Part shown: one piece after another, positions 27,769-48,501 of the stretch
Layout: each line of letters begins with the position of its first letter
Position numbering within the stretch: the first letter of the stretch is position 1
Source of the DNA: an uncultured Kiritimatiellota bacterium
GTDB lineage: Bacteria > Verrucomicrobiota > Kiritimatiellia > RFP12 > UBA1067
Reading direction: 5' to 3'
Length of the DNA: 64,000 bases
NCBI GenBank assembly: GCA_934675625.1
Contig: CAKURH010000004.1
Span: 640-64,639 of the forward strand
Notes under the pieces: model-generated
Told to the model about the DNA's origin: nothing
The model's database searches: none
What the model saw: the letters and a program-made list of their open reading frames with translations, nothing else
Made by a program: the position numbers and the translations under genes

Positions 27769-27788
27769 CGGTTCGCCGCACCTCAATA

Positions 27789-27797
27789 TGGTATAAT
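27789..27797 (+). promoter_or_regulatory. extended -10 element TGGTATAAT, 11 nt upstream of ATG 27809 (leaderless or near-leaderless)
   Basis: Exact TGnTATAAT match. Confidence 0.5.
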
Positions 27798-27808
27798 ACG
27801 CCCCCGCT

Positions 27809-28222
27809 ATGACGACGGTTACGAAGACGGTGCGGTTTGATGCCGCGCACATCCTGACGAATCACCAGGGGCTCTGCAAGAACCTGCACGGGCACACGTA
27901 TCGCGTGGACGTGTCCGTCGCGCAGGAAGACGGCGCGGGCGGCGACATGGTCATCGACTTCAAGGACCTGAAGCGGATTGCGGCGGAGACGGTCTGTGAC
28001 CGCTTTGACCACGCATTCATCTACAACACGGAATCGGCGGGTGAGCGCGAGATCGCGGCGGTCGTCGAGCGACACGGCATGCGGACGGTCGCGCTGCCGT
28101 TCCGCTCCACGGCCGAGAACCTCGCGCAGATGTTCTTCGGCGAGCTCCGGGCGAAGATCCCCGGCCTTCAGTCCGTCAAGGTCTGGGAGACGGCCGACAG
28201 CTGCGCCGAGTATCGCGCATGA
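27809..28222 (+). CDS. queD: 6-carboxy-5,6,7,8-tetrahydropterin synthase
   Basis: ..VRFDAAHIL....C.NLHGHTY.V.V.. is the QueD/PTPS signature. Confidence 0.85.
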   Translation: MTTVTKTVRFDAAHILTNHQGLCKNLHGHTYRVDVSVAQEDGAGGDMVIDFKDLKRIAAETVCDRFDHAFIYNTESAGEREIAAVVERHGMRTVALPFRSTAENLAQMFFGELRAKIPGLQSVKVWETADSCAEYRA

Positions 28223-29373: not shown

Positions 29374-29436
29374 CGATTGCGCAAAAAGTGATTTTATTTT
29401 GCTGAATCCGACCTTTCGGAACGGGTGCGGATTGTG

Positions 29437-29442
29437 TATAAT
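29437..29442 (+). promoter_or_regulatory. -10 hexamer TATAAT with a c.40-nt leader and AAGGAGA SD before ATG 29484
   Basis: The sequence reads TGTGTATAAT, and the SD lies at 29472-29478. Confidence 0.4.
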
Positions 29443-29483
29443 ACTTCCCATTTCGTTGGCAAAAGAAAAACAAGGAGAAAGAC

Positions 29484-30188
29484 ATGCTGAAGGAGAAGTT
29501 TGACTTGACGGGCAAGGTTGCCCTCGTGACCGGCTCGACGCGCGGCATCGGCAAGGCCATTGGCGATGCGTTCGAGGAATACGGCGCGAAGGTGATCCGC
29601 CACAACACGAAGGTCTGCGACCTGTCCGACCCGGCGGTGATCGACGCGTTCTTCGACCGGCTCGCGGCGGAGGGCGCGCTGCCGGACATCCTCGTCGCCA
29701 ACGCCTCGATCCAGGCGAAGATCCCGTGGACGGAGTTTCCGCTCGACGAGGCGCAGAAGGAGATGCAGGTCAACTTCTTCGCGACCCTGCGGATGTTCCA
29801 GCGGTGCTATCCGAAGATGAAGGCGCAGAAGTGGGGGCGGCTCATCGTGGTCGGCTCGGTGAACGAGCGGCGTCCGCATCCCGACATGTGCGTCTACGCG
29901 GCGACGAAGAGCGCGCAGGAGAACCTCGTGCGCGGCATCGGCCGCCAGGTCGCGCCGGAGGGCATCACGGTCAACAACCTCTGCCCCGGTGTGTTCAACA
30001 CCGATCGGAACCGTGACTGCCTCGCCGACCCCGTCTACGGGCCGCGCGTGACGGCGGCGATTCCGCTGCACGACTACGCCGTGCCGGAGGACGCCGCCGG
30101 GGCCGCGCTGCTCCTGGCGTCCGACGCGGGCCGCTACATCACCGGCACGACGCTGATGGTGGACGGCGGGCTGTCGATTCCGGGCTGA
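29484..30188 (+). CDS. SDR-family oxidoreductase
   Basis: The cofactor motif TGSTRGIGKAI and the catalytic YAATK are present. Confidence 0.85.
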   Translation: MLKEKFDLTGKVALVTGSTRGIGKAIGDAFEEYGAKVIRHNTKVCDLSDPAVIDAFFDRLAAEGALPDILVANASIQAKIPWTEFPLDEAQKEMQVNFFATLRMFQRCYPKMKAQKWGRLIVVGSVNERRPHPDMCVYAATKSAQENLVRGIGRQVAPEGITVNNLCPGVFNTDRNRDCLADPVYGPRVTAAIPLHDYAVPEDAAGAALLLASDAGRYITGTTLMVDGGLSIPG

Positions 30189-30227
30189 AAGGCCGAATGC
30201 CCGCCCGTCCTCTGCGCGTGTCCGTTA

Positions 30228-30236
30228 TGGTATAAT
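30228..30236 (+). promoter_or_regulatory. orphan extended -10 element TGGTATAAT with no start codon behind it
   Basis: An exact consensus copy lies 40 nt after the SDR stop. The next 170 nt hold only hairpins and repeats. Confidence 0.35.
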
Positions 30237-30243
30237 ACACGAC

Positions 30244-30268
30244 CCCCTTGTTTTAAAGGGGTTTCTTC
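30244..30268 (+). terminator. candidate intrinsic terminator (6-bp stem CCCCTT/AAGGGG, 6-nt loop, UUUCUUC tail)
   Basis: The hairpin was read directly at 30244-30261 and is followed by TTTCTTC. It could terminate the SDR transcript. Confidence 0.4.
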
Positions 30269-30320
30269 ACTTCAGTGGTCTTTTGGTGGTTCTTTGGGGG
30301 TGAAAAACGCCCCCTTGAAT

Positions 30321-30354
30321 CGCACAAGCTGTCACAAGTTCGCACAAGTTGTCA
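30321..30354. repeat. three 10-bp-phased direct repeats containing CACAAGYT
   Basis: The units are CGCACAAGCT GTCACAAGTT CGCACAAGTT GTCA. The CACAAG cores start at 30323, 30333 and 30343, upstream of a TATACT hexamer at 30381. Confidence 0.8.
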
Positions 30355-30406
30355 TGTCAGAAATCCGGCTCTCGCTCCCCTATACTGTTGAAGGAGATAT
30401 GCAAAA

Positions 30407-31009
30407 ATGAAAAGAACAGCCCTTGCGCTTGCCCTGATGTCGTCCGCCTGCCTCGTCGTTGACGTGAAGCCCTCCCATTCCGAAACGGTCAGGATCCGGG
30501 AGATGGTAAGGCACCTCGTCCCGTGGGACGCATGGCGATGGGACAGGACGGGCTTTCGCGGAACTTTCAAGGTCACGGTCTACAGGAAGACGAAGGAAGA
30601 CCTTGACCTCTTCTCGGACATAGACCTCAACTTGTCGCGTTCCGAGAGCGGGCACAAGCGGTTCGACGCCCTCATCTGCTCCGTCCTGCCTCTTGGGAAG
30701 GTCAAGGGGACAAGCCCAAAAAACCTCCTCCAAGACGGCTCTACCTTCTTCGTCTACGGGCGTTCACGGGAGAAGGTCAAGGACGTGGGCAAGCTCCTAG
30801 GAAAGGACAGCGGAGATTTTGTCGAGGCATACGTCACCGTCGAGAGGTGCGTCGGTCAGGAGCGGGACTACTGCCTCGACAGCCACAGGTGGAGCGGTGC
30901 GGGCGGGAAGGGAAGCCAGCCCGCCTACTGGCTCGTTGACGTGATGCCCGCCGCGAAGTTCGAGAGCGTCGTCAAGGTCGAGAGGGACGACTTCACGGCG
31001 TGGGAATGA
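30407..31009 (+). CDS. hypothetical lipoprotein
   Basis: MKRTALALALMSSAC forms a signal peptide plus lipobox-like Cys. An AAGGAG SD lies 10 nt upstream. I recognise no family. Confidence 0.5.
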   Translation: MKRTALALALMSSACLVVDVKPSHSETVRIREMVRHLVPWDAWRWDRTGFRGTFKVTVYRKTKEDLDLFSDIDLNLSRSESGHKRFDALICSVLPLGKVKGTSPKNLLQDGSTFFVYGRSREKVKDVGKLLGKDSGDFVEAYVTVERCVGQERDYCLDSHRWSGAGGKGSQPAYWLVDVMPAAKFESVVKVERDDFTAWE

Positions 31010-31020
31010 CCGAAAAGGGG

Positions 31021-31299
31021 TCAGAGGACGGACGCAAGCACCTTCGCGAGAAGCCCGCCAGCACCGACTAAAGAAGCAATAGCCGTCAATGAAATCACAA
31101 GGCACTTACCCAACAGCTTCAGGATTTCGGTTTTGAAGTCCTCGTGTTGCGCCTCTCCGTTGTGCTTTTCCAAGTTCGTAATCCTGTATGAGTGTTCCGC
31201 GAGCTGGTCGAGGACTGATTTCATCTGACCCGAAATCGTCCCCAGCTTCGCGCTGATGTCGGTAAAAATTTCAAGAATTTTTGTGTCCGTATTGCTCAT
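31021..31299 (-). CDS. XhlA-like small membrane protein (coiled-coil N-terminus, C-terminal TM helix)
   Basis: Internal ATG at 31299 gives 92 aa. The hydrophobic C-terminus is LVISLTAIASLVGAGGLLAKVLA. The gene overlaps the upstream gene by 4 nt. Confidence 0.45.
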   Translation of the reverse strand: MSNTDTKILEIFTDISAKLGTISGQMKSVLDQLAEHSYRITNLEKHNGEAQHEDFKTEILKLLGKCLVISLTAIASLVGAGGLLAKVLASVL

Positions 31300-31586
31300 T
31301 TTCGCTCTCCCGTTTCTATGCTTGTCCTCGTCGATTCCTTCGTCTCGACCATGCCCCAAAGATAGGAGTTCGTCGCGCAATGCTCCCTTGAAATCCTGAC
31401 CGTCTCGTTTGAGGTCGAAAAGGCTATCCCGCTCAAGTACGACACGATTTGGCACCCCATTACCTGCCCGTTGTAGGGAAGATACGCGCCGATGGTGGCT
31501 TTCGTCCCCTCCGTGTAAGTCGAGGTTTTCGTGACACAGCCGAAAACAAGAAGGAGACAGGCGGAAAGGACGAGACGGGATTTCAT
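31296..31586 (-). CDS. small lipoprotein (phage-associated)
   Basis: MKSRLVLSACLLLVFGC forms a lipobox; the product is 96 aa. Confidence 0.5.
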   Translation of the reverse strand: MKSRLVLSACLLLVFGCVTKTSTYTEGTKATIGAYLPYNGQVMGCQIVSYLSGIAFSTSNETVRISREHCATNSYLWGMVETKESTRTSIETGERK

Positions 31587-31590
31587 TTTT

Positions 31591-31833
31591 TTAGAACTCC
31601 TTTATCAGCTTCTCGACTTCCGAAATGCTCGTTTCAACTTCCTCGTCTTCTAGCTTTCCGTCAGACACGCGCGCGTTGATTCTCTTCAGGCAGTCGAGGA
31701 TTTTTGAGAGGCGTTCTATCCAAACGTTGATGGTCTTCGTGACAGTCGCAACGTTCTCGCGATTGTCTTCAAGAAGTTCGTTCACCGTCTTGATGATGTA
31801 TCTCTTCGCGATTCTGATGATTATTGATTTCAT
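31591..31833 (-). CDS. small helical hypothetical protein
   Basis: ATG at 31833 is preceded by GGAGAAAGGTGAAGG. The 80-aa product is charged and helical. Confidence 0.4.
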   Translation of the reverse strand: MKSIIIRIAKRYIIKTVNELLEDNRENVATVTKTINVWIERLSKILDCLKRINARVSDGKLEDEEVETSISEVEKLIKEF

Positions 31834-31838
31834 GTCCT

Positions 31839-32969
31839 TCACCTTTCTCCGGCTTCGATGTGATTCTTGAAGACCGACCATTTCGTGTCCGCGACATACC
31901 TGTCGTAAAGCTCCCTTGGAACGAGAATCCTGTAGTCCGCCGGGGCGTCCTCGAACTGATTCGTCCCCGACAGCGTGACGAGCGTCGAGAGGTCAGAATT
32001 CGTGCAGAGGTCGAGGACTTTCAGCCCCGGGCAGTATCGGAGAGCGTAGTTGCTGATTGCCGTGAGCGAGCCCGGCATGACGATTCGCTCGAGCGACGTG
32101 CAGCCCTTGAACGGGGTGTTTGACGAAGTGCCCTGGACTTTCTGAAGCCCGTTTGGAAGCAGGACCTCCCGCAGCTTCGGGCAGTTCATGAAGGTTTGGT
32201 GCCTGAGCGTTGTCATGGGGCTTTCGCTGATGTCAATCCGCTCGACCTCCGACATTTCGGCTAAGCCCGCGAGCGTCACGTCGGGGGCGGTGACCGAAAC
32301 GATTCCCGTCCCTTCAAGCGCGGCGTATGAGAGCTCCGTCACGCCGCCCAGGTTGACCTCCTTCGCGAACCACCCCGCTCCGACGAAAGCCCGCGTCCCG
32401 ATTTTCGCGACCGTGCCGGGAAGCCGCAGCTCGCCGCGATAGCCCGCAAGCGCATGGTTCCCGACCGTCGTCAGTTTCGTCTTCGAGAGGTCGACGAGCG
32501 TGACCCTCGGCAGGGTGTCCGCCGCGAAAAGCGGCGTCTCAGCCGTCGAGTAGACGCTTCCGTAATACTTCCCGACGCACGTCAGGCTGTCGTCGTCCGC
32601 AACCAAGGAGACGTCGCCCGCCCCGCCCGAAAGCGAGATGCCGTGAATGCCCATCACCCCGCGTTCGACGCTGAACTCCTGCGCGCCCGGATACCATTTC
32701 AGGTCGCGCTTCCAGGTTCCAGCGAGGTTCCTGTCCTGCTTGAACGAGGCGACGAAGTGCCTGTCCGCATAATACTCCTTCGTGACCTCCCTCTCCTGCT
32801 CGACCTCGACGGACAGCCCCGTGTCCTCCCCGCCCCCCATGATGCGGACGCCGCAGGGGTGAACCCGCTTGTAGAGGATGTGGAGATTGTAGTCGATTCG
32901 CTCGACCTCCTCCCCGTCGATTTGCAGGGACGACAGGCACGCCAAGTCAAGTCCGCTTTCGTCCATCAT
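31839..32969 (-). CDS. leucine-rich-repeat (BspA-type, LRR_5) protein, candidate receptor-binding protein
   Basis: Repeated F..C..L..I.LP..L..IG..AF units are present, for example FMNCPKLREVLLPNGLQKV and FKGCTSLERIVMPGSLTAISNYALRYCPGLKVLDL. A GAAGGAGG SD precedes the start. Confidence 0.7.
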   Translation of the reverse strand: MMDESGLDLACLSSLQIDGEEVERIDYNLHILYKRVHPCGVRIMGGGEDTGLSVEVEQEREVTKEYYADRHFVASFKQDRNLAGTWKRDLKWYPGAQEFSVERGVMGIHGISLSGGAGDVSLVADDDSLTCVGKYYGSVYSTAETPLFAADTLPRVTLVDLSKTKLTTVGNHALAGYRGELRLPGTVAKIGTRAFVGAGWFAKEVNLGGVTELSYAALEGTGIVSVTAPDVTLAGLAEMSEVERIDISESPMTTLRHQTFMNCPKLREVLLPNGLQKVQGTSSNTPFKGCTSLERIVMPGSLTAISNYALRYCPGLKVLDLCTNSDLSTLVTLSGTNQFEDAPADYRILVPRELYDRYVADTKWSVFKNHIEAGER

Positions 32970-33640
32970 GCCTCCTTCACGAGGAATTTCAGGACTTTCC
33001 GGGTTCCTGATATGCTGTAGGCGTAGACCTCCTTCTCGGCATATCCCTCCGGGAACGCCCCCCTTGCCTGAAATCTCCCGTCCGCCTCGTCCTTCGTGTA
33101 GGTTGAATCTCGCACGTCCTTCACCTCGTCCGCTATCGAATCCGCGTCAGGAATCGGAAACCACGAGCCGCCGACGAAAACGTTCAGGATGTCCGCCTCC
33201 GCGTATGCGTCGCCCTCGTTAGGTGATTCGGGCTTCTCGTCCAAGATGTGAAGGTAGTGGCTTGCCTTCCCCGCCGTTATTGTGCTGTCCCTGTCGAGGA
33301 CGATGAGGTCACCGACACCCAAGACATAGCCCTTCGTCTCGTTTCCGTTTTCGTCGATGCCGTCTGCTGTGACCGTGAAGCCGTTCGCAGTCTTCCCGAC
33401 CGAATCCGAGCCCGCAAGCGTCCCGACCCAACAACCGCCCGTGAGGACGCATTTCTTGCTCTCGATGGAATTGTCCGAAAAGGTCGCCGTGACGAAGACC
33501 TCCGTGATTTTCCACTGCCCTATCTTCTTCGGCACGTCGACGAGGCGAACCGAAATCGGGCTCCCCCTGAAAGTGACTATCGGCTGGAGCGGGATGTTGG
33601 CGTTCGCCGCGTGAACCTTTATGTCTCTTGTCCCTATCAT
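32966..33640 (-). CDS. tail-fibre-like hypothetical protein
   Basis: The motif STYTKDEADGRFQ resembles motifs common in phage tail-fibre proteins. The start/stop overlaps the LRR gene. Confidence 0.4.
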   Translation of the reverse strand: MIGTRDIKVHAANANIPLQPIVTFRGSPISVRLVDVPKKIGQWKITEVFVTATFSDNSIESKKCVLTGGCWVGTLAGSDSVGKTANGFTVTADGIDENGNETKGYVLGVGDLIVLDRDSTITAGKASHYLHILDEKPESPNEGDAYAEADILNVFVGGSWFPIPDADSIADEVKDVRDSTYTKDEADGRFQARGAFPEGYAEKEVYAYSISGTRKVLKFLVKEA

Positions 33641-33698
33641 TTTCTTCTCTTTCCGTTTCCGCCGCCACTAGGCGGCATGGGCTGAAAATGGGGCGGTG

Positions 33699-34697
33699 TT
33701 AAACGTCCGTCACCGCGTCGCGGAACTCGCACACGACTTCGGCTTTTCCAATGGAGATTGTCAGATGCGCATATTCCGCCGTTGCGGTCGCGGTATGGCT
33801 GAACGTCGATGGGTCCATGTTGAATGAGTGCCGCCGCTTCACTCCCTCGATGACGTTCTGCGCGGTCGCCTTGTCTATTCCGGGCGCGCCGAAGGTCGAC
33901 GCGCCGACCCGCACGGCGTATTTGTAGGTCTCGACGACATACAAGCTGTTGTCATTGACTTCCGTTGAAGAATACGCGACAGTGACGGGAACCCACGTGG
34001 CGGCGCGCTTCAGGATGAACGCCCCGTTATACTTCTGCGTGGGAAAGGGAATTGCGAGCGTGTCGAGCGCGCCAAGCTTCGCCGTGCGCGTAATACGCCC
34101 GTCCGTATTCCAAGCCCCGTTCGATTTCGACGCGCTTGCATACTCGCTGTAAATCGTGTGCGTCCCAACAATGGTTCCGATGTCGCTCTCGTCAACCGTC
34201 CCCTCCACTTCGACCGTCTCAGCTGTGACGTTTGCGGGATATCCGGCGTGCGCGATTGCGATGCCGAGCTCCCTCATGCCCCGCTGAAGTGCAAAAATCC
34301 TGTCCGCGCGAATGACCTTGCTGTCGTATTCGGGCACGGGAATCGCAAGCGACGTGCCCCTCTTTCCCTCGCGTTCCGCAACCTCCTCCAGCCAACTTCC
34401 AATTGGCGCGTCGGCGGAAAGCTCCGTCCAGTCCGTGAAGTCCGCCGTCCACGTGAAGCAGTTTCCTTCGCGGAGGTAGTCGGCAACCGCCTTCGTCATG
34501 TATTCGATAGGCTCGTCCAGCAGCCGCCGGTCGAACGTGCCGACCCTTGACGACGCGATGTCGCTTTCCCGCCCGGTGACGTGGTCGCGCTCCGCGACAG
34601 CCTCCTGGAGCCACGCGACGTCAACGCCCATCAGGCGGGTGTCGTTCCGCCGGAGCATGAGGTCTGCGGACAGGTCGATGCGGTCGAGGTCGCCCAT
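33699..34697 (-). CDS. hypothetical phage structural protein
   Basis: ATG at 34697 follows GGAGGAG by 7 nt and gives 332 aa. The longer ORF to 35252 runs antisense through rhs and is rejected. Confidence 0.5.
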   Translation of the reverse strand: MGDLDRIDLSADLMLRRNDTRLMGVDVAWLQEAVAERDHVTGRESDIASSRVGTFDRRLLDEPIEYMTKAVADYLREGNCFTWTADFTDWTELSADAPIGSWLEEVAEREGKRGTSLAIPVPEYDSKVIRADRIFALQRGMRELGIAIAHAGYPANVTAETVEVEGTVDESDIGTIVGTHTIYSEYASASKSNGAWNTDGRITRTAKLGALDTLAIPFPTQKYNGAFILKRAATWVPVTVAYSSTEVNDNSLYVVETYKYAVRVGASTFGAPGIDKATAQNVIEGVKRRHSFNMDPSTFSHTATATAEYAHLTISIGKAEVVCEFRDAVTDV

Positions 34698-34745
34698 GTA
34701 GCACTCCTCCGTGCGGCTCACGCGGGGATTCCTGCGACGCGCGTT

Positions 34746-37295
34746 CGCTACGACCCTCTCAGTCGGCTTGTGGCGCGGATGGACATCCTCGGCAACGAGA
34801 CGGCGATAGACTATTCGACGAATGGGCTGACGGCGACAGTCCTCAATCCGAACGGCTCGACGGAGATTACGTCGCGCGATGCCCGAGGCGAGGTCCGGTC
34901 TGTCACGGGCACGGCGGTCACGCCTGAATTCCGCACCTCCGGCGTGACAGCGGACGGCATCCGCTGGACGCGTGTCGTGCGCGGCGAGACGCCGGATGCG
35001 CCGCGCTTCACCCTTCGTTGCGAGAACATGCTCGGCCAGGTCGTCCGTGAGGAGCGGAGCGGCTTTCGGGGCACGGCTCTCGTGACGACCCACGCATACG
35101 ATGCCTACGGCCGCCTCGTTCGCACCGCCTCCGACGGCGAGCCGATGGTCGTTTACGCTTACGACGACTTCGGCGCACGCGTCGCCGAGACCCGCACGGT
35201 CGGGGGCGACTGTTCCGTTGATTCGCCCGAATGGCGCAAAAGCGAAACCCATGCCCGTTACTCACAGGTGGACGGCACCATTTGGCACGTCACGACCAAC
35301 GTCGACTTCTGCTCCGATGCGGCCATTGCGCCGCTCGTCGCCTCGCGGCGCATCCAGCTCACGGGACTCACGGCGGCGAATCCCGCGCGCCGCGTGAGCG
35401 TCGACGTGCGCGGCAACGTCACGGAGTTCTGGACGGAGTTCGCGGATGGCATTGTTACGACGAGGCACCGCGTTCCGGAGGTGACGAACGTCATCAGTGC
35501 CTGCGCACGGCTTGGCGTCCAGCTGGAGACCGTCTCGCTTTCGGCGGTCACAAACCGAATCGTCTACGATGCGCTCGGCCGAGCCTGTGCGGAGATTGAC
35601 GGACGCGGCAACGCGACGCGCACGGAATACGACGTCGCCGGGCGGCGTGCGGTGGCCTATGACGGCGCGGGGAACGCGACGCGCTACGCCTACGACCGGT
35701 TCGGGCGGCTCGCCGCCGTCACGAACGCGCTCGGACACGCCGTCGTCTACGAATACGACCTGCGCGGGCGCAAGACGTACGAGGGCGGCGCGACCTATCC
35801 CGTCCGCTATTCGTACGACGTCTTCGGCAACCGGATCTCGATGATGACCTACCGCGACGAATCAAAGGGGCTCGCTTCGGGCGACGTGACGCGCTGGCTC
35901 TACGACGAGGCGAGCGGCCTCATGACCAACAAGGTCTATGCGGACGGGCTGGGCCCCCGATACGAATACGACGCAAACGGCCGCCTCGTGAAGCGCACAT
36001 GGGCGCGCGGCATCGACACGTCCTACGCCTACGACGGATGGGGTGCGCTCACGAACACGGTCTATTCGGACGGCACATCGACCATCTCCACGCGGAACGA
36101 TGCGCTTGGGCGTCAGGTCGAGGCACATGACGCGGCGGGCGTGACGACGTTCGCCTACGACGCCTACGGCGCGAACACGAACGAGACGGTGATAGGCGTC
36201 GCGGGCACGAACGTCCTTGAACGCTTTACTGACGCCTACGGGCGCGATATCGGCTTCGCACTCAACGGCGAACGGCGTACGGTTCTCTCCCGCGACCCAG
36301 CGACAGGCCGTATCGCAGCAATGCGTGCGGCAGGCTGCGCAAACGATTTCGCATGGACGTATCATCCCGGATGCGACCTGAAGCATACGCTCCGCTACCC
36401 GAACGGTGCGCTCGTCACGTGGGAGTACGAGCCGCGACGCGACCTGATGACGCTCGTCTCGAACGACGTCTACTCGTCTTTCCGCTACACGTATGACGGG
36501 GCGGGCAAGCGCACCTCGAAGAACGACGAGCGCTATTCCTACAATGCGCGGGGCGAGCTGATCCTGGCGACGAACGTCGTCACGGGCACGGAGTTCGCCT
36601 ACCGCTACGATGACATCGGCAACCGGCTCTGGTCACGCGAGTTCGGCACGAACTGCACGTATGTCGCGAACGGGCTGAACCAGTACACGAACGTCGTGCG
36701 CGGCGGCGCTTCCGAGCGGTCGGCGTTCGACCTCGACGGCAACCAGACGAACGTCGTCACGGCCACGGGCGAGTGGGCGGTCGAGTACAACGGCGAGAAC
36801 CGGCCCGTGCGGTGGACGCGCACGTCGGACGGCGCGACGGTCCTGATGGCCTACGACCGCATGGGGCGGCGCGTCATGAAGAGCGACGAGACGTTCGTCT
36901 ACGACGGCTACCTGAACGTCAGTAAGACGGTCTGGGACCCGACCGAGCCCGTTGCGACGAGGCCGATAGTCTTTGACGAGACCGACTTGGTCTTTCTTTT
37001 CCATGATACGAACAAGAACGTCGTGGATGAGATTTCATTGTCAAGTGTTTACGGAAAGGAATATGCTCCATATGGAACTTTTTTAAAAGGGGAAAACATG
37101 TCGCCTTGGGGGTTTTCCTCGGAATATTTTGATCATTCATTGGCACTGATCTCGTACGGGTTTCGTGTATTGGATACTTTCTGCGGCAGATGGATGCAGC
37201 GAGATTCTTACGAGTTCGTCTTTGATTATCCCATTGTTGCGAATCAAGTTGTCAATAAAATTGATGTGCTGGGTTTATTTTTTTTATTACACTGA
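34746..37295 (+). pseudogene. rhs: rhs-family (YD-repeat) polymorphic-toxin gene, 5'-truncated; the core ends ..NKIDVLGL and stops 5 codons later
   Basis: Many YD repeats are present: RYDPLSRLV, YAYDAYGRLV, YAYDDFGARV, EYDVAGRR, YAYDRFGRLA, YEYDLRGRK, YSYDVFGNR, YEYDANGRLV, YAYDGWGAL, YTYDGAGKR and YRYDDIGNRL. The core-end motif is GRWMQRDS..IDVLGL. There is no N-terminal domain, start context or promoter. Rhs similarity begins at about 34720-34750. Confidence 0.8.
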
Positions 37296-37698
37296 ACATC
37301 CAGCTGGAACAATTCCAGGAAGTGGCTGGCCAAATCCTAATTGGACGGGTACAACAATTGTCACGAAAATGCCAGTACTTGATGTTTCTGTTCTTCATTG
37401 TATAGGCAAAAAGATAAAGTTTTATGCTGTCAGTCATGATATGCGAGTGGATACATATTATAGAGTTGAGCCTTCGTACAGATTGCGTCGTGATGAAGCA
37501 GACCATGTTTATTGTTATCGATGCTTCTACAGTGAATATGAAGCGGTTATCGCTCTGATTAAAGCCATTCCTTGTTCGTGCCCTAATGATGCAAATGCAT
37601 TGCGATTAAAGTATCTGGCTAGGCTTGTGTCGGCACAAATATCTTGCGATGCCTGTAATGCGAGATACGATCAACCGGGAGGTCCACATGGGCATTAA
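37273..37698 (+). CDS. Rhs C-terminal (toxin) domain ORF, lying in the +1 frame relative to the Rhs core
   Basis: The frame is open from before the T8 run (37278-37285) to TAA at 37698 and has no start codon of its own. Removing one T fuses ..DVLGLFF to YYTEHPAG... The domain is Cys-rich and AT-rich, and I recognise no family. Confidence 0.45.
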   Translation, partial: VYFFYYTEHPAGTIPGSGWPNPNWTGTTIVTKMPVLDVSVLHCIGKKIKFYAVSHDMRVDTYYRVEPSYRLRRDEADHVYCYRCFYSEYEAVIALIKAIPCSCPNDANALRLKYLARLVSAQISCDACNARYDQPGGPHGH

Positions 37699-38323
37699 GT
37701 CTTGCGTAGTGTCAATTATTCTAATTGCAACACTTGAATTAGATGCTGGATTATTTAATTCATTTGTCGTGACGAACTTTCATTGTCAAGCGGCGTTCAA
37801 GAGGACGGCTTGCGTCATGGCTCAAGACGCAAGGTCTGTCGTCATTGAGCCAGGCGGTCTTGATTCAGATGAACTGGCTCTTGCCAAATCCTTGGTGTTC
37901 TTGTCTCTGAGAAAGAGAAGTGTGCGTACAGAGGTTTCGCTTGACATAGATGAGCCTGTTCGACTTCGAGTCACGCCTTTTGAGGGCTGGACGGATTACG
38001 ATCTTTCCTTCTCGTATTTCGGTGCAAGAATTGATGCGTATGACGTGCAGTGCGTTCCGTTTGTCGTGACAAATCGACGCAATAACCATCGAATGAAGGT
38101 CGCGCTGTTCAAGTTCATGAAAGATGGACGTTTCGTGTTCGCCGAATATGCTAATCTGAACAATCTTCAAGTGTCACCGATTTTTGCGAGAAACTATACG
38201 ATGAGAACTTATTTGGCCTACCAGTCGGAGTTCCCGTGGCTTTCCGAAAAAGAAGTGGTGAGGCAGAAATCTTATATTGAATGGCATGGAAGCAAAGATC
38301 ATGAAGTGACATCGCAGATATGA
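37688..38323 (+). CDS. candidate immunity protein for the adjacent Rhs CT domain (N-terminal signal/anchor)
   Basis: GGAGG lies 6 nt upstream of the ATG, and the gene overlaps the toxin ORF end by 11 nt. The product is 211 aa. Its 5' half is duplicated at 42346-42591. Confidence 0.55.
   Translation: MGIKSCVVSIILIATLELDAGLFNSFVVTNFHCQAAFKRTACVMAQDARSVVIEPGGLDSDELALAKSLVFLSLRKRSVRTEVSLDIDEPVRLRVTPFEGWTDYDLSFSYFGARIDAYDVQCVPFVVTNRRNNHRMKVALFKFMKDGRFVFAEYANLNNLQVSPIFARNYTMRTYLAYQSEFPWLSEKEVVRQKSYIEWHGSKDHEVTSQI
37757..38002 (+). repeat. 246-bp direct repeat, copy 1 (inside the immunity gene)
   Basis: Aligned by eye to 42346-42591, it shows 10 substitutions and no indels. Confidence 0.9.
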
Positions 38324-38386
38324 ACGCATGCTTTTGCTTTGCCGGCAAACTCATAGCAAGTGGGGGTTCGTCGGTTGATAGGGTGC

Positions 38387-38965
38387 ATGATGAATGCTGT
38401 AAAGAAAAGAAGAAATAAGATTGTAGTCTACGTTCTCATTGGCGGTATCTTTTTAGCATCCCTTCATTGTTGCATTCCGATGATGGGCTGGCGGATGGTC
38501 TTTGACGGCGGGGACGTCAATCTGATTTCTGGGTATCGACGTGGCGAATGGTATGTCCTGCGCCAGGATGTGTTCGTTGTCAAGAGCAAAGCGTATGCTA
38601 TGGGGATGCTCGGCGTTGCCGTTCCTGAAAAGTACAAACTTCAGGGAAGTTATTACGCAGTTCCGCAGACCATTGGAGATTGGCGAAGTTCTAAAGACAG
38701 GGAACGCTTAGGTTGCAGTACTTTCAGCGATATCAGGGGTGTCATGCCCAAGGGAACGAAGATTGAGATTGTTGGAAGTAAGGTTGTCTATGCGGTCTCT
38801 TGGTGGTATGGTTTTGAGAAGGTTTTTTGCATTATGGCACAGGGCATGCTCAATGGACGAATAGTTGAATTTGAGATATCAGACCTCACAGACAGAAAAA
38901 CGAAAAAACCTTTTGAAACGTTGATTTCTCGTGATCAGGTTGGCCATAGGGAGAATATACGGTGA
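38387..38965 (+). CDS. membrane-anchored hypothetical protein (AT-rich cassette gene)
   Basis: ATG at 38387, with an N-terminal TM helix IVVYVLIGGIFLASL. I recognise no family. Confidence 0.45.
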   Translation: MMNAVKKRRNKIVVYVLIGGIFLASLHCCIPMMGWRMVFDGGDVNLISGYRRGEWYVLRQDVFVVKSKAYAMGMLGVAVPEKYKLQGSYYAVPQTIGDWRSSKDRERLGCSTFSDIRGVMPKGTKIEIVGSKVVYAVSWWYGFEKVFCIMAQGMLNGRIVEFEISDLTDRKTKKPFETLISRDQVGHRENIR

Positions 38966-39972
38966 AAATGAAGCTGAACAAATTCATTTGGAGAGGAAGC
39001 CTTGATTTCATGGTGGGGCTTGTTGTTCCTGTTGCTATCGGCATTGGAGTGGCGATGCTGTTTCTTTTGCGGCACGACTCGCCCCAAGTCCCGACGGCGA
39101 TTCGGCATGACGTCCGCCCGATTCAGACGAAGGACGTCGCAGCCCCGTCCGCGTCCCGTGCGTCGCAACCCCACACGTCAGTCGAGCCGGAAGACGTCTC
39201 GGTGGCGGTTGCCGTCGTCTGCGGACATGAGGCCGCGACCGCCGACCGCTACGAGGCGCGCAATGCCGCGCTTCTGTCTCTCTCCCGTCGCCGAGACCTG
39301 GGCGTGGACGATGTGCAGACCTTGATGGCGTATCTCCGTACGACAGGCGGCGCGTTGCACGTCGAACGCGAGGCCGCGCTGAAGAACGATGTCCTCAATC
39401 TTTTGCGGAATCAGGCGACGCTCCCGGACGGGCTTGTCGACCTGCTCATGGAAATGTTCGCCTGCAATGAGCAACCGTCGGCCGTTCGCGACTACGCGCT
39501 CCAACACCTCGGTGCCTTGCAGAAGGACGACCTTGATGCGCAGCAGCGACGAAACTGCCGAGATGTTTTTGTTGCGGCGGCGAAGGACATCCGCGAGCCT
39601 TTCGCGGGAACGGCACTCTATTCGCTGGCCGCAATCGAACAGATGTCAAAGACACAAGAAGCCGAGTTGCGTCGCCTGACGGTTGCCGCCTGTGGCGCGG
39701 CGGCGAATCCCCTCGCCCGGATGTCGGCCCTGCAGCTGGCCGGCGAGCGCGGCTACCGCGAGGTCTTGCCCGTCGTGCGGAAGCTGCTGGACGGGTCGCG
39801 TCGTAATGCGGTGACGGATATGGTCGCGGTCGGGACGCTGGGACTGCTTGGCGGTCGCGAAGACCTTTCTCGGCTGGAGCGAGTGAAGACGTGCGGCGGG
39901 CAACGTCTGCGTCCGGCGGTCGAGGTGGCCATCCGAAGAATTGAAGAACGTCTGAAACAGGAGGTGAAATGA
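38962..39972 (+). CDS. membrane-anchored HEAT/armadillo-like repeat protein
   Basis: An N-terminal TM helix is followed by repeated helical units with ..R..A...L..L motifs (PBS-lyase HEAT-like). The GTGA overlap with the upstream gene gives a possible GTG start at 38962, with ATG at 38968 as the alternative. GC rises to the host level after about 39050. Confidence 0.5.
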   Translation: MKMKLNKFIWRGSLDFMVGLVVPVAIGIGVAMLFLLRHDSPQVPTAIRHDVRPIQTKDVAAPSASRASQPHTSVEPEDVSVAVAVVCGHEAATADRYEARNAALLSLSRRRDLGVDDVQTLMAYLRTTGGALHVEREAALKNDVLNLLRNQATLPDGLVDLLMEMFACNEQPSAVRDYALQHLGALQKDDLDAQQRRNCRDVFVAAAKDIREPFAGTALYSLAAIEQMSKTQEAELRRLTVAACGAAANPLARMSALQLAGERGYREVLPVVRKLLDGSRRNAVTDMVAVGTLGLLGGREDLSRLERVKTCGGQRLRPAVEVAIRRIEERLKQEVK

Positions 39973-41060
39973 TGAAACTTGGTTTGTCTGTCGGTTTTGC
40001 CGCATTCGTGTTTGCCGCAGCGGCAACGCCGCGTCTGGAAGTCCCGTCAACGGGCGTTGCGCTCGGCGAGGTCGCCGCCGGCGAATCCGCGTCTGGAACG
40101 GTGACGATTCGGAACGCAGGTGATTCACCTCTCGGTGTCTCGCGGGTCAAGGCGTGCTGTGGTGCGACGGCGGAGCTGTCGAGCCTGGATCTTGCGCCGG
40201 GCGCGTCTGCCGTGCTGACGGTCACGCTGAAGTCGCAGTTGCCGGGCGAGATCTCGAAGTCCGTCCATCTCTATTGCGACGACCCGAAGAGCCCGGTTGC
40301 CGTCATCCTGGTGACGGGCATGGCCCGCGAGCGGCGTACGCCCGGTGCCGTGTCGCGCTTCACGCTTCCAGCTGTCGTTCTGGCTGGCGTCGCTGACGGA
40401 TTCAACCCCTGTGCGTTCTCCATCGTGATTGCGCTCGCGGGCATCCTCGCCGTCGGCGGATGGGCGTTCTGCTTCGGCTCGTTCCTGACCTACGTGCTGA
40501 TGGGGCTAGGCCTGATGCGGGCGCTCAAGGCACTGGACGGACTTGAGACCGTGCGGAATGTCGTGATGACGGCACTGGCGGTGTCGCTGTTTGTCCTCGC
40601 GTTTCTCAGCGTCCGCGACGCCTTCCGCTACCGTCGTGCCAGGGTGCCGTCGGTCATCACGCTCCATCTGCCGGATCGCGTGAAGAAGCTGATCCGCGTG
40701 GTGGCCGAGACGAGCTGGAGCGGCCCGACGGTGGTTGTCGCGGGAGTCGGGTGCGGATTCCTCGTGACGTTGCTCGACTCGCTCTGCACGGGGCAGATCT
40801 ATGTGCCCGTCCTTGCGCTCATCTCACGCGAGCCGGAATCCCTGCGCGCGTTCGCGATGCTGATCGTCTACAATCTCGCGTTCATTGCGCCGCTTGTCGC
40901 CGTGTTCGTCCTTGCGGCGAAGGGGGCGGACGCCGCGCAGATGTCCAAGTGGTCGAAGCGCAACGTCTTCCCGTCCAAGATCGGGCTTGGTGTCATGTTC
41001 GCTGTTCTGGGCGTCCTTGTCCTGCCGTGGTTCGGTGCGTGGCTGGAGAGCCTGTTCTGA
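39969..41060 (+). CDS. DUF1573 domain fused to a CcdA/DsbD-like thiol-disulfide transmembrane domain
   Basis: The N-terminal VALGEVAAGESASGTVTIRNAGDSPLGVSRVKACCGAT fits the DUF1573 pattern. It is followed by GFNPCAF.. (the NPC motif of the DsbD_2 family) and about 6 TM segments. The gene shares an ATGA overlap with the HEAT gene. Confidence 0.6.
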   Translation: MMKLGLSVGFAAFVFAAAATPRLEVPSTGVALGEVAAGESASGTVTIRNAGDSPLGVSRVKACCGATAELSSLDLAPGASAVLTVTLKSQLPGEISKSVHLYCDDPKSPVAVILVTGMARERRTPGAVSRFTLPAVVLAGVADGFNPCAFSIVIALAGILAVGGWAFCFGSFLTYVLMGLGLMRALKALDGLETVRNVVMTALAVSLFVLAFLSVRDAFRYRRARVPSVITLHLPDRVKKLIRVVAETSWSGPTVVVAGVGCGFLVTLLDSLCTGQIYVPVLALISREPESLRAFAMLIVYNLAFIAPLVAVFVLAAKGADAAQMSKWSKRNVFPSKIGLGVMFAVLGVLVLPWFGAWLESLF

Positions 41061-41077
41061 GGCTGTCGAAACACACA

Positions 41078-41653
41078 ATGTCCTCGCATATGCGCCCCCT
41101 CCGCTTCCCCGTCCCTCCGTGCCTCCGTGTGAGACGACCACGACATGCCTCGACCGATCCCTCTGCCGAGGAACTGCGCGCGGTGCGCTACCGCTTTCAG
41201 GGGCGCGAGCGCTCGGCGGCGACGGGGCTCGTCAACTTCCGCATGAGGTGGTACGATCCGGCGACGGGCCGCTGGCTCTCCAAGGATCCTATCGGACTTA
41301 GCGGCGGACTGAATTTGTATGCGTTCTGCGGGGGAAATCCTATTTTGCGGATTGATCCGCAGGGCGAAAGTGCAGCCTCAGTAACAATCACCGTTGTAGC
41401 ATTGTCATATCTTATATATAAACTTATTAAACACGCAAAATCGGTAAATGATAAAATGAAGGGCAGGGATGTGGATGATTTGTGTGATGTTGTTAATGGG
41501 GCCTTAGATGTCTGTTCGGAAACTATGTCTGCGATAACATCCCCAACAGGCATGATGCCTGATGAAAAATCGCCTTTGATAGATCCTTTGATAAGTCCTG
41601 CGATAGAAAATATGTGGAACGACACGTTTGATCGCATTAGGCCCTTAGATTAA
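41078..41653 (+). CDS. orphan Rhs C-terminal fragment: last c.50 aa of the core plus a distinct CT domain containing a TM helix
   Basis: YRFQGRERSAATGLVNFRMRWYDPATGRWLSKDPIGLSGGLNLYAFCGGNPILRIDPQGE is the canonical Rhs core end. An AT-rich c.105-aa tail follows, including VTITVVALSYLIYKLI. Whether it is translated from ATG 41078 is uncertain. Confidence 0.6.
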   Translation: MSSHMRPLRFPVPPCLRVRRPRHASTDPSAEELRAVRYRFQGRERSAATGLVNFRMRWYDPATGRWLSKDPIGLSGGLNLYAFCGGNPILRIDPQGESAASVTITVVALSYLIYKLIKHAKSVNDKMKGRDVDDLCDVVNGALDVCSETMSAITSPTGMMPDEKSPLIDPLISPAIENMWNDTFDRIRPLD

Positions 41654-41654
41654 A

Positions 41655-42074
41655 ATGAAGAGGATCTACTCTATCTGCGCGTTTCTTTTCCTGTTGGGCT
41701 CAGTGTCCGTTTACGCTGTCTTGGGCGTCCGCTTGGCTTTTTGTGCGGTGGTATTTGCGGATGCCAGTGAGTTGTCTCGTATGGCAGTGGAGGCCCTTGG
41801 TGACTTTGTTTTCTTTTGCTTATGCGCACGGATTCTTCTTTTGCTCGTGCGACAGTCTAAGATATCAAAGGCCTATGTATGGTGGTTCTTCCTTGCCGTT
41901 ACATGGATTGGTGTTATCCAGTTTTGTGCTTCTCAGTTAAGAGCCTTTCTGGAAATGTGGTTCTGCCTCTTCTTTATTTTATCACCTGTTTTTGTGGCTT
42001 TTGTGTTTTCGGTAAAGGATGTTGCCAAACGTAAAAAATTGACCCGAATCGAGGTGGATGATGCGAAATGCTGA
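41655..42074 (+). CDS. polytopic membrane protein, candidate immunity protein for the orphan CT domain
   Basis: The gene starts 1 nt after the orphan CT stop and encodes 139 aa with about 4 hydrophobic segments. It is AT-rich. Confidence 0.5.
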   Translation: MKRIYSICAFLFLLGSVSVYAVLGVRLAFCAVVFADASELSRMAVEALGDFVFFCLCARILLLLVRQSKISKAYVWWFFLAVTWIGVIQFCASQLRAFLEMWFCLFFILSPVFVAFVFSVKDVAKRKKLTRIEVDDAKC

Positions 42075-42276
42075 TTATTGCCGGACATTTAGATTGCTAA
42101 AAGCACAGGCATTGCGAGGTGTTGCCGAACTGATGTGGCTTGCGGGGACGGCGTATCGTGATGGGCATTTCCAGTGTGCCGGACAGAAGAAGGGTGTGCT
42201 CGTCCGTCGGAATGTCAGGTTGGCTTTGCATTGGCTCGAACGGGCGGCTGAAAAGCGTAGCGCTGGAGGAAAGGTG
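42058..42276 (+). other. Sel1/TPR-like repeat fragment (5' part of a chimeric ORF)
   Basis: ..AELMWLAGTAYRDG......RNVRLALHWLERAAEK resembles a single Sel1 repeat. It runs in frame into the truncated immunity copy. Confidence 0.3.
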
Positions 42277-42591
42277 ATGGACGTTAAGTGTTGTATCGCG
42301 ATGGTCGTCGCGGCCTGTGCATTAGGGCTGCATGCCGAGTTTTTCAATTCGTTTGTCGTGACGAACTTTCATTGTCAAGCGACGTTCAAGAGGACGGCTT
42401 GCGTCATGGCTCAAGACGCAAGGTCTGTCGTCATTGAGCCAGGCGGTCTTGATTCAGACGAACTGGCTCTTGCCAAATCCTTGGTGTTCTTGTCGCTGAG
42501 AAAGAGAAGTGAGCGTACCGAGGTTTCGGTTGACATAGAAGAGCCTGTTCGACTTCGCGTCACTCCTTTTGAGGGCTGGACGGATTACGAT
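42277..42591 (+). pseudogene. truncated second copy of the 37688..38323 immunity gene
   Basis: It has its own GGAGGAAAGG SD and an ATG at 42277. The signal region is divergent. The following 246 bp are 236/246 identical to copy 1, ending abruptly at the island/chromosome junction. Confidence 0.7.
42346..42591 (+). repeat. 246-bp direct repeat, copy 2
   Basis: See 37757-38002. Confidence 0.9.
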
Positions 42592-43738
42592 TTTCTGCGA
42601 CCGTGTTCTGCGCGCGCCACTGGCTCATGGTGAGGCCCGTCCGGGCCTTGAAGAGCCGCTTCAGGTAGATGGACGAGCCCCATCCGCAGAGGTTGGCGAT
42701 GGGCTCCATGATCTGGTTCGGCTTCTTCAGGAGCTCGAATACGCGCTCCATTCGGACGGAGATGATCTCTTCGACGATCGTCCGTCCCGTGGCGCTCTTG
42801 AAGCGGTTTTCGGCGGCGCGCTCGGAAAGGCCGAGGAACTTGACGACGTCCGTCGCGGTGAGCCCGTTGCAGGCCTCGCGGCGGATGTAGTCGAGCGCCT
42901 CTCCGATTGGGGTCTTTGAGGGCTTCAGCCGTCGTGAGGAGAGCCGCCGGGTGAGTCCGATCGGCGAATAGGTGAGCTTCTGCGGCTGGAGCTTGGGGTT
43001 GGCCAGGCGCTTCAGCAGGAGTTCCGCCGCGAGCCGTCCGCTGGTCCTGAAGCTCGGATGCACGCTGGTCAGCGACGGATGCGTGTTGTCGCAGAACGTC
43101 GGGTCGTCGTCCACGCCGACGACCCGGATGTCGCCCGGAACGGGTCGGCCGAGCTGGAGACAGGCGTTCAGCACGTCCGAGGCATAGGCGTCGTTGACGG
43201 CGAAGATGCCGCAGCCGACGGGAAGCCCGGCGAGGAACGGGCGCAGCCTTGCGGCGAATTCGGCCTTGTTCCCGAACGTGAGCGAATCCGTCAGGGCGAA
43301 GCACGCTTTTCCGTGCGCGGCGGCGCGGGCGGCGAAGCGGGCCTTGCGTCGGTGGCTCCACCCGACGTCTGGATTCCAGCCGACGAAGGCGAGCGAGGGA
43401 CAGTCTGCGAGTTCCTGGAAGGCGAGGTCGGCAATGGCTTCCGCATCGTTGAGCACGGTAAAGGCCGACGGGTCTTCCAGCGTCCAGTCGGGCGGGTCAA
43501 GATGGACGAGCGGGACACCGCGAAAGGTCTCCGAAGGAATCTCCCGGTTGCAGGCGCCTTCCAGGATGATGCCGACCGGCTGCCAGTAGGCGACGACATC
43601 CGCAAGCGGCTCGGTCAGGCGGACGAGCTCGACCGCCTCGATGCGCATCCCGGAACCGACGACGACTTCCTGCGCGCCCGCATACTGGTAGACGCGGGAA
43701 CGCGCATTGAGATCGGTTATGAAGAGGACGGTATCCAT
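42560..43738 (-). CDS. XylR-type regulator (periplasmic-binding-protein-like sugar sensor + AraC HTH)
   Basis: The PBP1/LacI-like N-terminal region shows ..GIFAVNDAYA..IRVVGVDDD... The C-terminal AraC HTH shows ..CGWGSSIYLKRLFKARTGLTMSQWR. The last c.10 codons and the stop lie inside repeat copy 2. Confidence 0.8.
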   Translation of the reverse strand: MDTVLFITDLNARSRVYQYAGAQEVVVGSGMRIEAVELVRLTEPLADVVAYWQPVGIILEGACNREIPSETFRGVPLVHLDPPDWTLEDPSAFTVLNDAEAIADLAFQELADCPSLAFVGWNPDVGWSHRRKARFAARAAAHGKACFALTDSLTFGNKAEFAARLRPFLAGLPVGCGIFAVNDAYASDVLNACLQLGRPVPGDIRVVGVDDDPTFCDNTHPSLTSVHPSFRTSGRLAAELLLKRLANPKLQPQKLTYSPIGLTRRLSSRRLKPSKTPIGEALDYIRREACNGLTATDVVKFLGLSERAAENRFKSATGRTIVEEIISVRMERVFELLKKPNQIMEPIANLCGWGSSIYLKRLFKARTGLTMSQWRAQNTVAENRNPSSPQKE

Positions 43739-43753
43739 TTCGACGTTGGGGGA

Positions 43754-43762
43754 ATAATACCA
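43754..43762 (-). promoter_or_regulatory. extended -10 element TGGTATTAT (minus strand), 15 nt upstream of ATG 43738
   Basis: The reverse complement of 43754-43762 reads TGGTATTAT. Confidence 0.4.
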
Positions 43763-43883
43763 TAATCGCGCTTCGGGCGCAAGCGGAAATGGTTAGTCGC
43801 GATGTGCGGTTTTGGTTAGGGGTGGGGTAGTCTCATTTGATAAACTACCTACATCGTTAAATCAGATTGTAAGGAGGCTCACG

Positions 43884-46613: not shown

Positions 46614-46639
46614 CCGCACACAGGCAAGGGCGACGTCTC

Positions 46640-48466: not shown

Positions 48467-48501
48467 CGCGGGCGACGTCCGTGCTGACGTCTTCGCGGAT
48501 A

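Follow-up and report, generated by a model that had tools for sequence, protein, structure and literature searches.

A probable variable spot in a Kiritimatiellia chromosome, where a prophage remnant and a decayed Rhs array meet at a deletion scar

The decayed lambdoid prophages of Escherichia coli K-12 are cryptic (defective) prophage remnants. The locus described here lies in a 64,000-nucleotide stretch of DNA (the window) from an uncultured Kiritimatiellota bacterium (GenBank assembly GCA_934675625.1, contig CAKURH010000004.1, positions 640 to 64,639), where such a remnant stands beside an array of Rhs toxin genes. Rhs/YD-repeat toxin loci with orphan cassettes have been described in Enterobacteria, Serratia and bee-gut symbionts (PMC7043789, PMC5727410, PMC10539506; reviewed in PMC4436062). 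Neither component of the locus is of a new kind: one is a defective prophage, the other an Rhs array that includes orphans. We put at about 0.8 the probability that their location is a variable spot holding the scar tissue of unrelated elements (the prophage remnant, the decayed Rhs array and a trio of conserved genes), and not a working mobile element. The spot, in a human-gut species, is set between two conserved blocks, ..MetH-PTPS-ChrA-SDR and McsB_C-like-ClpC-PFL... An earlier sequence-only reading had proposed serial recombination and decay rather than a single insertion, which agrees with the three scars that we located (30237/30238, 34717–34724 and 42591/42592) and with the lack of a mobility gene.

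The Rhs part shares with the described loci a YD-repeat shell that closes with the Rhs-associated core motif, C-terminal toxin domains that vary, are AT-rich and have a small open reading frame (ORF) after each of them, a downstream orphan that keeps the last part of the core with a different toxin, and duplicated, truncated immunity genes at the end of the array. It differs from them in that the lead gene is disabled by a 5′ truncation and a frameshift, that the host belongs to the Kiritimatiellia, whose arrays carry HEAT-like and DUF1573/DsbD_TM genes, and that no VgrG, PAAR or type VI secretion system (T6SS) genes were present in the Pfam listings of the Rhs loci examined. The phage part is like a cryptic prophage in being a short collinear piece of a late region, with deletion joints to host genes and without integrase, excisionase, head or terminase genes. 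Unlike the cryptic prophages, only ∼4.4 kb is left, every surviving ORF is intact and the parent family is essentially uncharacterised, without PHROG matches for p332, p224 or the small proteins and without relatives in IMG/VR or among the phage records of GenBank. The locus as a whole also resembles integrase/tRNA islands, as it is absent from the closest relative, deviant in composition and bracketed by a short direct repeat. However, integrase and border tRNA are both absent, its repeat coincides with a host promoter consensus, and the interior is a patchwork with internal scars and a conserved host trio. A single island of the tRNA/integrase type was rejected.

The scar between the phage and Rhs parts is the following feature.

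34717–34724, no strand: deletion joint at which a phage gene (p332) and the lead Rhs gene meet, each clipped at its 5′ end, defined by the ends of homology

Phage homology stops at ∼34716 and Rhs homology starts at ∼34725, with 8 nt in between. At the joint ∼10 codons of p332 and ∼90 codons of the Rhs gene have been lost, and the two genes diverge from it, neither with its native 5′ end or promoter. Two genes clipped at one joint and pointing apart are the signature of one deletion; the adjacency of phage and Rhs genes is a deletion scar without functional meaning. An intact prophage related to the phage block (contig L008, see below) has no Rhs gene, the phage genes had no match in two Kiritimatiellia Rhs arrays (L108 and L111) and the listings of two others (L121 and L122) contained no phage-family gene. 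The pairing of a phage receptor-binding module with an Rhs locus, which the earlier reading did not recognise as a described arrangement, has no logic of its own, as both genes are clipped and intact relatives keep them apart.

The minus-strand operon to the left of the joint can be assigned to a phage because of its synteny with L008, a contig with an intact-looking Kiritimatiellia prophage that served as the reference for this block. L008 encodes a GpA-type terminase, a portal protein and a ClpP-type protease, as well as a series of late genes without annotation. The distal order is 348-, 200-, 337-, 69-, 80-, 106- and 92-aa genes and a reverse-strand 201-aa gene, and the end is formed by an HTH_17 xis-like gene and then a tyrosine integrase gene (Phage_integrase, 41.8 bits). 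Window positions 30355–31833 correspond to L008 12942–14451 and positions 33087–34700 to L008 10055–11660, at 73–79% nucleotide identity. Six window proteins are 60–90% identical to L008 proteins, with order and orientation kept. The ORFs of this block are listed here, with protein identities to L008.

30407–31009, plus strand: p200, secreted/lipoprotein-like, 74% to the product of the reverse-strand 201-aa gene
31021–31299, minus strand: p92, small phage protein with a C-terminal transmembrane segment, 90%
31296–31586, minus strand: p96, small phage protein with an N-terminal hydrophobic segment ending ..LSAC, 80% to the 106-aa protein
31591–31833, minus strand: p80, small phage protein, 79%
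31839–32966, minus strand: LRR375, BspA-type leucine-rich-repeat (LRR) protein in a variable slot, identified by LRR matches
32966–33640, minus strand: p224, phage protein without a family match, 79% to the 200-aa protein
33699–34697, minus strand: p332, phage protein starting at an internal Met, first ∼10 codons lost

The minus-strand genes carry Shine-Dalgarno sites of the GGAG type, so that both the synteny and these sites agree with the phage-like operon with canonical Shine-Dalgarno sequences that had been noticed from the sequence. That description had left p200 out of the operon; p200, on the plus strand, belongs to the phage block, and its L008 homologue sits between the late genes and xis/int. 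Together the operon and p200 are the distal end of a decayed prophage from a barely known phage group. No L008 genes other than those at 10001–14399 have a match in the window: terminase, portal, ClpP, xis and integrase genes are all gone, and tblastn with the L008 int and xis products found nothing there. In p332 the N-terminus of the family is missing, yet ‘RTEECY’ is kept upstream of the present Met. Only 3 homologues of p332 were found among 5.8 billion proteins, 2 of them in phage contexts; one of the 3 is encoded in L008. AlphaFold2 models were too poor for a fold search, with pLDDT values of 47 for p332 (from a 4-sequence alignment) and 33 for p224 (from a single sequence). We read the ..LSAC of p96 as a possible lipobox.

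The slot of LRR375 is variable, because L008 has there a different LRR-like 337-aa protein, with a 69-aa gene, that matches the same two LRR families of PHROGs. These families (phrog_35892 and phrog_18805) are phage BspA-type LRR proteins; LRR375 and the 337-aa protein occupy the same slot after p224 and are otherwise unrelated in sequence. A role of the LRR protein in host recognition is plausible.

Some further features of L008 were recorded. Nine of ten proteins scanned from L008 1–17000 had no convincing PHROG match (eight late genes had none and one was marginal), and no gene of tape-measure size was visible. Directly upstream of int there are four CACRAA repeats at a 10-nt phase, and TGGTATAAT, a promoter motif of the window host (see below), lies ∼400 bp beyond the integrase gene. 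As a weaker lead, phages of the L008 type may integrate at this host TGGTATAAT promoter motif.

To the right of the joint, the Rhs array begins with a lead gene, its toxin domain and a putative immunity gene.

34725–37295, plus strand: 5′-truncated Rhs core with YD repeats and the end of the Rhs-associated core (Rhs_assc_core), from matches to RHS_repeat and TIGR03696
37278–37285, plus strand: T8 run that puts CT1 out of frame with the Rhs core, seen in the compared assemblies
37286–37698, plus strand: CT1, out-of-frame Rhs C-terminal toxin domain of 134 aa, rich in Cys and His, from its match to protein P0054
37688–38323, plus strand: imm211, putative cognate immunity protein with an N-terminal hydrophobic segment, from its position and GGGAGG site

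The Rhs ORF spans 34581–37295, and the called ORF starts at the ATG at 34779 (838 aa). Its repeats were recognised by RHS_repeat PF05593 (E 2.8e-32) and TIGR01643 (E 8e-29), the core matches the solved Rhs shells of Tse5 and RhsA, and the core end scored 32.9 bits against TIGR03696 (cut-off 32.5) over residues 782–853 of 858. The closest homologues are 1050–1470 aa long. They start 88–460 residues (most ∼88) before the first aligned residue of the window protein, many of them with a conserved N-terminus MTYNxEGKR.., and extend 130–250 aa beyond its stop. The 5′ truncation that had been read from the sequence therefore stands, as homologues have at least 88 more N-terminal residues; the N-terminal region (plug or trafficking part) of the window Rhs is incomplete.

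The Rhs frame stops 5 codons after the core end, within TTATTTTTTTTATTA, and the 134 codons that follow belong to the +1 frame. CT1 matches the C-terminal end of the Rhs protein P0054, which is in frame with its core, at 40% identity (E 1e-34), and deletion of one T from the T8 run gives a 972-aa ORF that is collinear with P0054 from the core into the toxin. The T8 run is identical in the window and in six other assemblies, and the lead Rhs gene is therefore doubly disabled, by the 5′ truncation and by the frameshift. The C-terminal cassette that had been ascribed to it is present, but out of frame behind the T8 run. CT1 matched no Pfam or NCBIfam family and may be an undescribed Rhs toxin fold; the motifs H..CYR, C.CP, C..CN and a terminal PGG.HGH are common to CT1 and P0054. 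The imm211 gene overlaps the end of CT1 and is preceded by the GGGAGG Shine-Dalgarno site.

The rest of the array reaches the third scar, with the last ORF running across it.

38360–38965, plus strand: p201/p160, small AT-rich ORF with one transmembrane segment, from ORF and transmembrane prediction
38968–39972, plus strand: HEAT-repeat protein, 51% identical to the HEAT protein encoded after Rhs and immunity genes in L108/L109
39969–41060, plus strand: protein with a DUF1573 Ig-like domain followed by a domain with six transmembrane segments, 72% identical to its L108 and 69% to its L111 homologue
41231–41653, plus strand: CT2, orphan Rhs cassette with the last 44 core residues and a 95-aa toxin part, from TIGR03696
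41655–42074, plus strand: p139, with five predicted hydrophobic (transmembrane-like) segments, putative CT2 immunity protein, from position and transmembrane prediction
42058–42633, plus strand: composite ORF, a Sel1-like fragment fused to a 3′-truncated second copy of imm211, from the repeat and a Sel1 match

The HEAT and DUF1573 genes had been taken for genes of host-like composition caught between the cassettes. This does not hold: both belong to the Rhs array, because they recur in the Kiritimatiellia arrays L108, L109, L111, L121 and L122. The order in L108/L109 is an Rhs gene (61% identical), a 155-aa ORF, a HEAT gene (51%) and a DUF1573 gene (72%), with HEAT-like paralogues preceding each Rhs gene. 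In L111 the 69%-identical DUF1573 protein is encoded between two Rhs genes, the L121 array ends in a DUF1573 gene, and in L122 a HEAT gene lies two genes upstream of Rhs. By this recurrence HEAT and DUF1573/DsbD-like genes appear to be standard parts of Kiritimatiellia Rhs arrays. The proposal of a DUF1573-CcdA fusion is carried by the L111 homologue, which matches DsbD_TM PF02683 (E 2.4e-8, 34 bits against a cut-off of 27.1), and not by the window protein, which had no match to this family even at E≤10; six transmembrane segments are predicted in the latter. Searches of the literature on Kiritimatiellae and Rhs, and of full texts on Rhs with HEAT or DUF1573/DsbD_TM, returned nothing relevant. 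The five arrays also hold PA14, WG_beta_rep, TIR, Peptidase_C14 caspase-like and PLA2G12 genes.

In CT2 the core end scored 61.2 bits (TIGR03696, model positions 32–75 of 76) and there is no upstream shell. Its toxin part has one transmembrane segment and shares 37% identity with the C-terminal end of a full Rhs protein in L108; p139 starts 1 nt after it. As had been described, the array has two C-terminal cassettes that are AT-rich and unrelated to each other, with small membrane proteins after each, to judge from the ORFs with predicted transmembrane segments and from the CT2 orphan. p201/p160 may be an orphan immunity gene. A direct repeat of 263 nt (94% identity) links imm211 with its second copy (37743–38005 and 42332–42594), and the second repeat unit ends exactly at the right border first proposed for the island. 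Hidden Markov model searches on the island ORFs, which had been suggested as a check, gave RHS repeats, the Rhs core end and LRR families among their matches. imm211, p201, p139, the toxin part of CT2, p200 and a protein of the trio, p608, had no Pfam or NCBIfam family.

The trio forms the right third of the spot.

42560–43738, minus strand: XylR-like regulator, from matches to Peripla_BP_3 and an AraC HTH
43884–46613, plus strand: PKD/beta-helix (pectate-lyase-like) protein, second member, from domain matches
46640–48466, plus strand: p608, conserved Kiritimatiellia protein, third member, from its homologues

The XylR gene has lost its native stop at 42591/2 and reads 10 codons into the antisense of the imm211 remnant; it has a host promoter with one mismatch. 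The three genes (minus, plus and plus strand) are kept together in another species (L104/L105) with other neighbours, their GC content at third codon positions (GC3) is 0.84–0.88, and p608 has hundreds of Kiritimatiellia homologues at 65–87% identity. By these comparisons the trio is clade-typical chromosomal material and not foreign cargo. The centre of the PKD protein is hypervariable, with no nucleotide homology between window 44367–45924 and positions 2455–3883 of the same-species contig L106. A few kb from the PKD gene the two contigs are 99% identical, yet the XylR region is only 89% identical. This points to the PKD/beta-helix gene being a recombination-prone surface or enzyme gene.

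The extent of the spot is given by comparison with the only close relative found, a metagenome-assembled genome (MAG) of a sister species (contig L011).

30226–30237, plus strand: left copy of TATGGTATAATA, host extended −10 consensus, the last sequence common to the sister-species MAG
30238–30354, no strand: AT-rich border segment of 117 bp with a hairpin and CACAAG repeats, without a significant L008 match
48500–48511, plus strand: right copy of TATGGTATAATA, promoter of the McsB_C-like gene, where homology to the sister-species MAG resumes

L011 is collinear with window 25426–30237 (90% nucleotide identity) and then directly with 48500–54325 (95%), joining the two through a single copy of the 12-mer TATGGTATAATA with clean flanks. 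The block absent from L011 is thus 30238–48499, or 18.3 kb. For an island first placed at 30240–42591, the left edge is exact (30238) and the right edge is a true breakpoint, as shown by comparison with L106 and by the XylR 3′ end, but the block missing from the sister species extends to 48499. Absence from a relative at the same site, for which an empty-site comparison had been proposed, was therefore found. The proposal that there was no flanking direct repeat did not survive: the 263-nt repeat ends at the 42591/2 border, and TATGGTATAATA, present once in L011, stands at both ends of the block (30226 and 48500). TATGGTATAATA occurs four times in the window and equals the host promoter consensus, so that reading it as a target-site duplication needs further evidence.

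The AT-richer left border with hairpins and phased repeats was seen as described, with a terminator-like hairpin at 30244–30261 and three CACAAG repeats at a 10-nt phase (30323, 30333 and 30343; span 30323–30348). This segment may descend from the prophage arm next to the integrase gene. The scanned island ORFs likewise included no integrase or transposase, and there is no tRNA at the island borders, the sole tRNA of the window being at 55152.

At the right-hand scar, L106 has sequence in common with the window only from 42592 rightwards. L106 is of the same species (99.25% identical over McsB_C-ClpC) and was for this reason rejected as an outgroup for the polarity of insertions and deletions. 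At L106 10–717 an IS200-like Y1 transposase gene (32 bits) abuts the XylR 3′ end, at the exact nucleotide where the window has the imm211 remnant.

The break with the host in base composition that was noticed at first sight was confirmed by GC and tetranucleotide profiles across the island segments. The window has 64% GC overall, with ∼67–70% and a GC3 of ∼0.9 in the flanks; the flanks, at GC 0.67, correlate at 0.99 in tetranucleotides with the rest of the window, and 2-kb host windows at 0.959 ± 0.012 with the host. The phage block (30355–34723) has GC 0.585 and a correlation with the host of 0.744, segment 37201–38965 has GC 0.44 and −0.14, and segment 41061–42594 has GC 0.505 and 0.30. The Rhs core (0.867) and the HEAT and DUF1573 segment (0.918) lie between these and the host. 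For the trio the correlations are 0.874 (XylR), 0.788 (PKD gene) and 0.933 (p608); such values are noisier for short segments, and those of XylR and p608 are weak evidence.

The flanking genes are nearly all on the plus strand. The characteristic promoters reported for the host are real: TGGTATAAT occurs nine times in the window, against 0.05 expected.

1661, 5772, 6325, 24107, 27789, 30228, 48502, 52000 and 59563, plus strand: TGGTATAAT sites, from a motif count

Because TGGTATAAT lies 8–11 nt before the ATG of several host genes, leaderless-type transcription is suggested to be widespread in this Kiritimatiellia.

Contigs encoding identical SDR or XylR proteins came from human gut metagenomes, Hadza samples included. 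Two look-ups gave more than 40 same-species contigs, which were read. Those compared (7 + 7) were collinear with the window at 99.5–100% over every joint, so that assembly did not create the mosaic, which, leaving aside the L106 variant, is fixed in the population sampled.

We infer the following order of events. The region between the SDR gene and the McsB_C-like gene would first have held the Rhs array and the trio, and a temperate phage of the L008 type would have integrated downstream of the SDR gene. One deletion would then have taken most of the prophage (tail, head and terminase) together with the Rhs promoter and the first ∼90 codons, and another would have removed xis and int, leaving seven intact phage ORFs at 30355–34716. 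The array has a clade-typical layout (Rhs, immunity, HEAT, DUF1573/DsbD_TM-like and a further Rhs gene), in which the lead gene would have lost its toxin frame by a change from T7 to T8. Further losses would have cut the downstream Rhs gene to an orphan core end with its toxin cassette, and the array would have been cut at XylR. The sister species, in turn, would have lost the block by a deletion between the two 12-bp promoter copies.

The difference from the sister species could also have arisen if the entire block 30238–48499 were one acquired island, inserted at the McsB_C-like promoter by site-specific or microhomology recombination that duplicated TATGGTATAATA as attL and attR, L011 being the empty site. 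L011 does have one 12-mer where the window has two, between clean flanks; the block is without a TGGTATAAT promoter and most of it is compositionally deviant. The phage block also lies 117 bp from the left 12-mer, with phased repeats there that resemble those upstream of the L008 integrase gene, beyond which TGGTATAAT follows at the distance of ∼400 bp noted above. However, a deletion between two copies of a host promoter consensus found four times in the window would look the same. In addition, the right third is a host-like trio, by its GC3 and its one-mismatch XylR promoter, that stands in other chromosomal contexts elsewhere, the interior has three scars and no mobility gene, and the 28 nt from the end of p608 homology to the right TATGGTATAATA leave no room for a phage arm. 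We regard a single acquired island as unlikely, while leaving it an appreciable share of the probability. A T8 run exactly at the core/toxin boundary, where a one-base slip restores the 972-aa frame and the next gene is immunity-like and has a strong Shine-Dalgarno site, might instead be a phase-variation or programmed-frameshift switch, with the lead Rhs gene regulated and not dead. This we hold to be very improbable, as the run is invariant in all seven assemblies, without length polymorphism, and the product would still be without the ∼90 N-terminal residues conserved in the closest full-length homologues and without the native upstream region. It is less probable still that the phage block and Rhs array form a functional unit, as tail/receptor-binding proteins that target or deliver the toxin or as Rhs cargo borne by the phage. 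Their direct adjacency is fixed, the phage ORFs are all intact and an LRR protein fills a variable slot, but the reading was rejected: both genes are clipped at the joint and diverge from it without native 5′ ends or promoters, the toxin is frameshifted, and the parts occur apart in L008 and in the arrays L108, L111, L121 and L122. Finally, the metagenomic source and the repeats (263-nt and YD) might raise the thought of an assembly chimera, to which we give almost no credence: the contigs that span every junction number more than 40, come from different samples and assemblers, and refute it as independent assemblies.

Scar tissue at a variable spot remains the explanation that we prefer, and several observations weigh against it. 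All seven phage ORFs and several ORFs of the Rhs array are intact and fixed in the population, which could mean recent decay or retained function. The phage assignment found no echo in the collections searched: neither p332 nor p224 was matched by tblastn in any of 50,697 phage records, the p332 alignment drew no relative from IMG/VR, and PHROGs and Pfam recognised only LRR families among the island phage proteins. A receptor-binding function of the phage genes is suggested by the BspA-type LRRs and gene position, and the immunity role of imm211, p201 and p139 is likewise putative, read from gene position and from the transmembrane segments. The 117-bp border aligned locally with the L008 int-xis region no better than shuffled sequences did. 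More distant relatives carry neither junction of the 18.3-kb difference, so that the sister species could represent the ancestral empty site. ChrA-SDR synteny was kept only in L011 among SDR-centred loci from 80 species genomes, and a metagenome scan with the McsB_C-like protein found distant relatives without SDR or p608 upstream.

Two other parts of the window may be mentioned. The SDR gene (29484–30188) has 82–97% protein identity in ∼70 Kiritimatiellia species genomes (loci L011–L089), an unusual degree of conservation given that its neighbours change. Among the nine closest SDR loci at the nucleotide level, flanking sequence was common only to L011, and in most of the others homology ends at or within a few bases of the ends of the coding sequence. 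A second patch of low GC (0.56–0.58) at 1963–5679 contains an AAA-ATPase_like ORF, a DUF3990 gene and a DUF4143/AAA_14 ATPase gene. The first of these matches only the C-terminal end of its model and is probably 5′-truncated. The patch, which has TGGTATAAT on either side (1661 and 5772), may be a further variable spot.

Of the genes left at the spot, those for the immunity-type membrane proteins are probably still functioning, and possibly p200. If so, the immunity-type proteins would guard against Rhs toxins of kin. The cassettes may be recombination stock for full-length Rhs genes elsewhere, a use that has been shown for orphan Rhs elements in other organisms (PMC7043789, PMC5727410).

The locus itself is ordinary genome decay and not a new system. 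For annotation, it means that a striking layout of phage genes next to Rhs genes can be a mere deletion joint, and the coordinates of the scars allow clean calls of pseudogenes and remnants. The comparison also gives a first look at the Rhs arrays and a temperate phage of gut Kiritimatiellia, from a poorly studied phylum; the points of interest lie beside the locus, in the recurrent HEAT and DUF1573/DsbD genes and in a nearly unannotatable Kiritimatiellia prophage. We suggest, tentatively and at less than even odds, that gut Kiritimatiellia Rhs arrays carry an undescribed conserved set, the HEAT-like protein and a membrane protein that links a periplasmic DUF1573 Ig-like domain with a thiol-transfer domain of the DsbD/CcdA type, for toxin folding, export or self-protection. 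If this is true, the accessory set would act in a lineage in which VgrG, PAAR and T6SS genes are not seen beside the arrays, and the window would hold a decayed copy of it.

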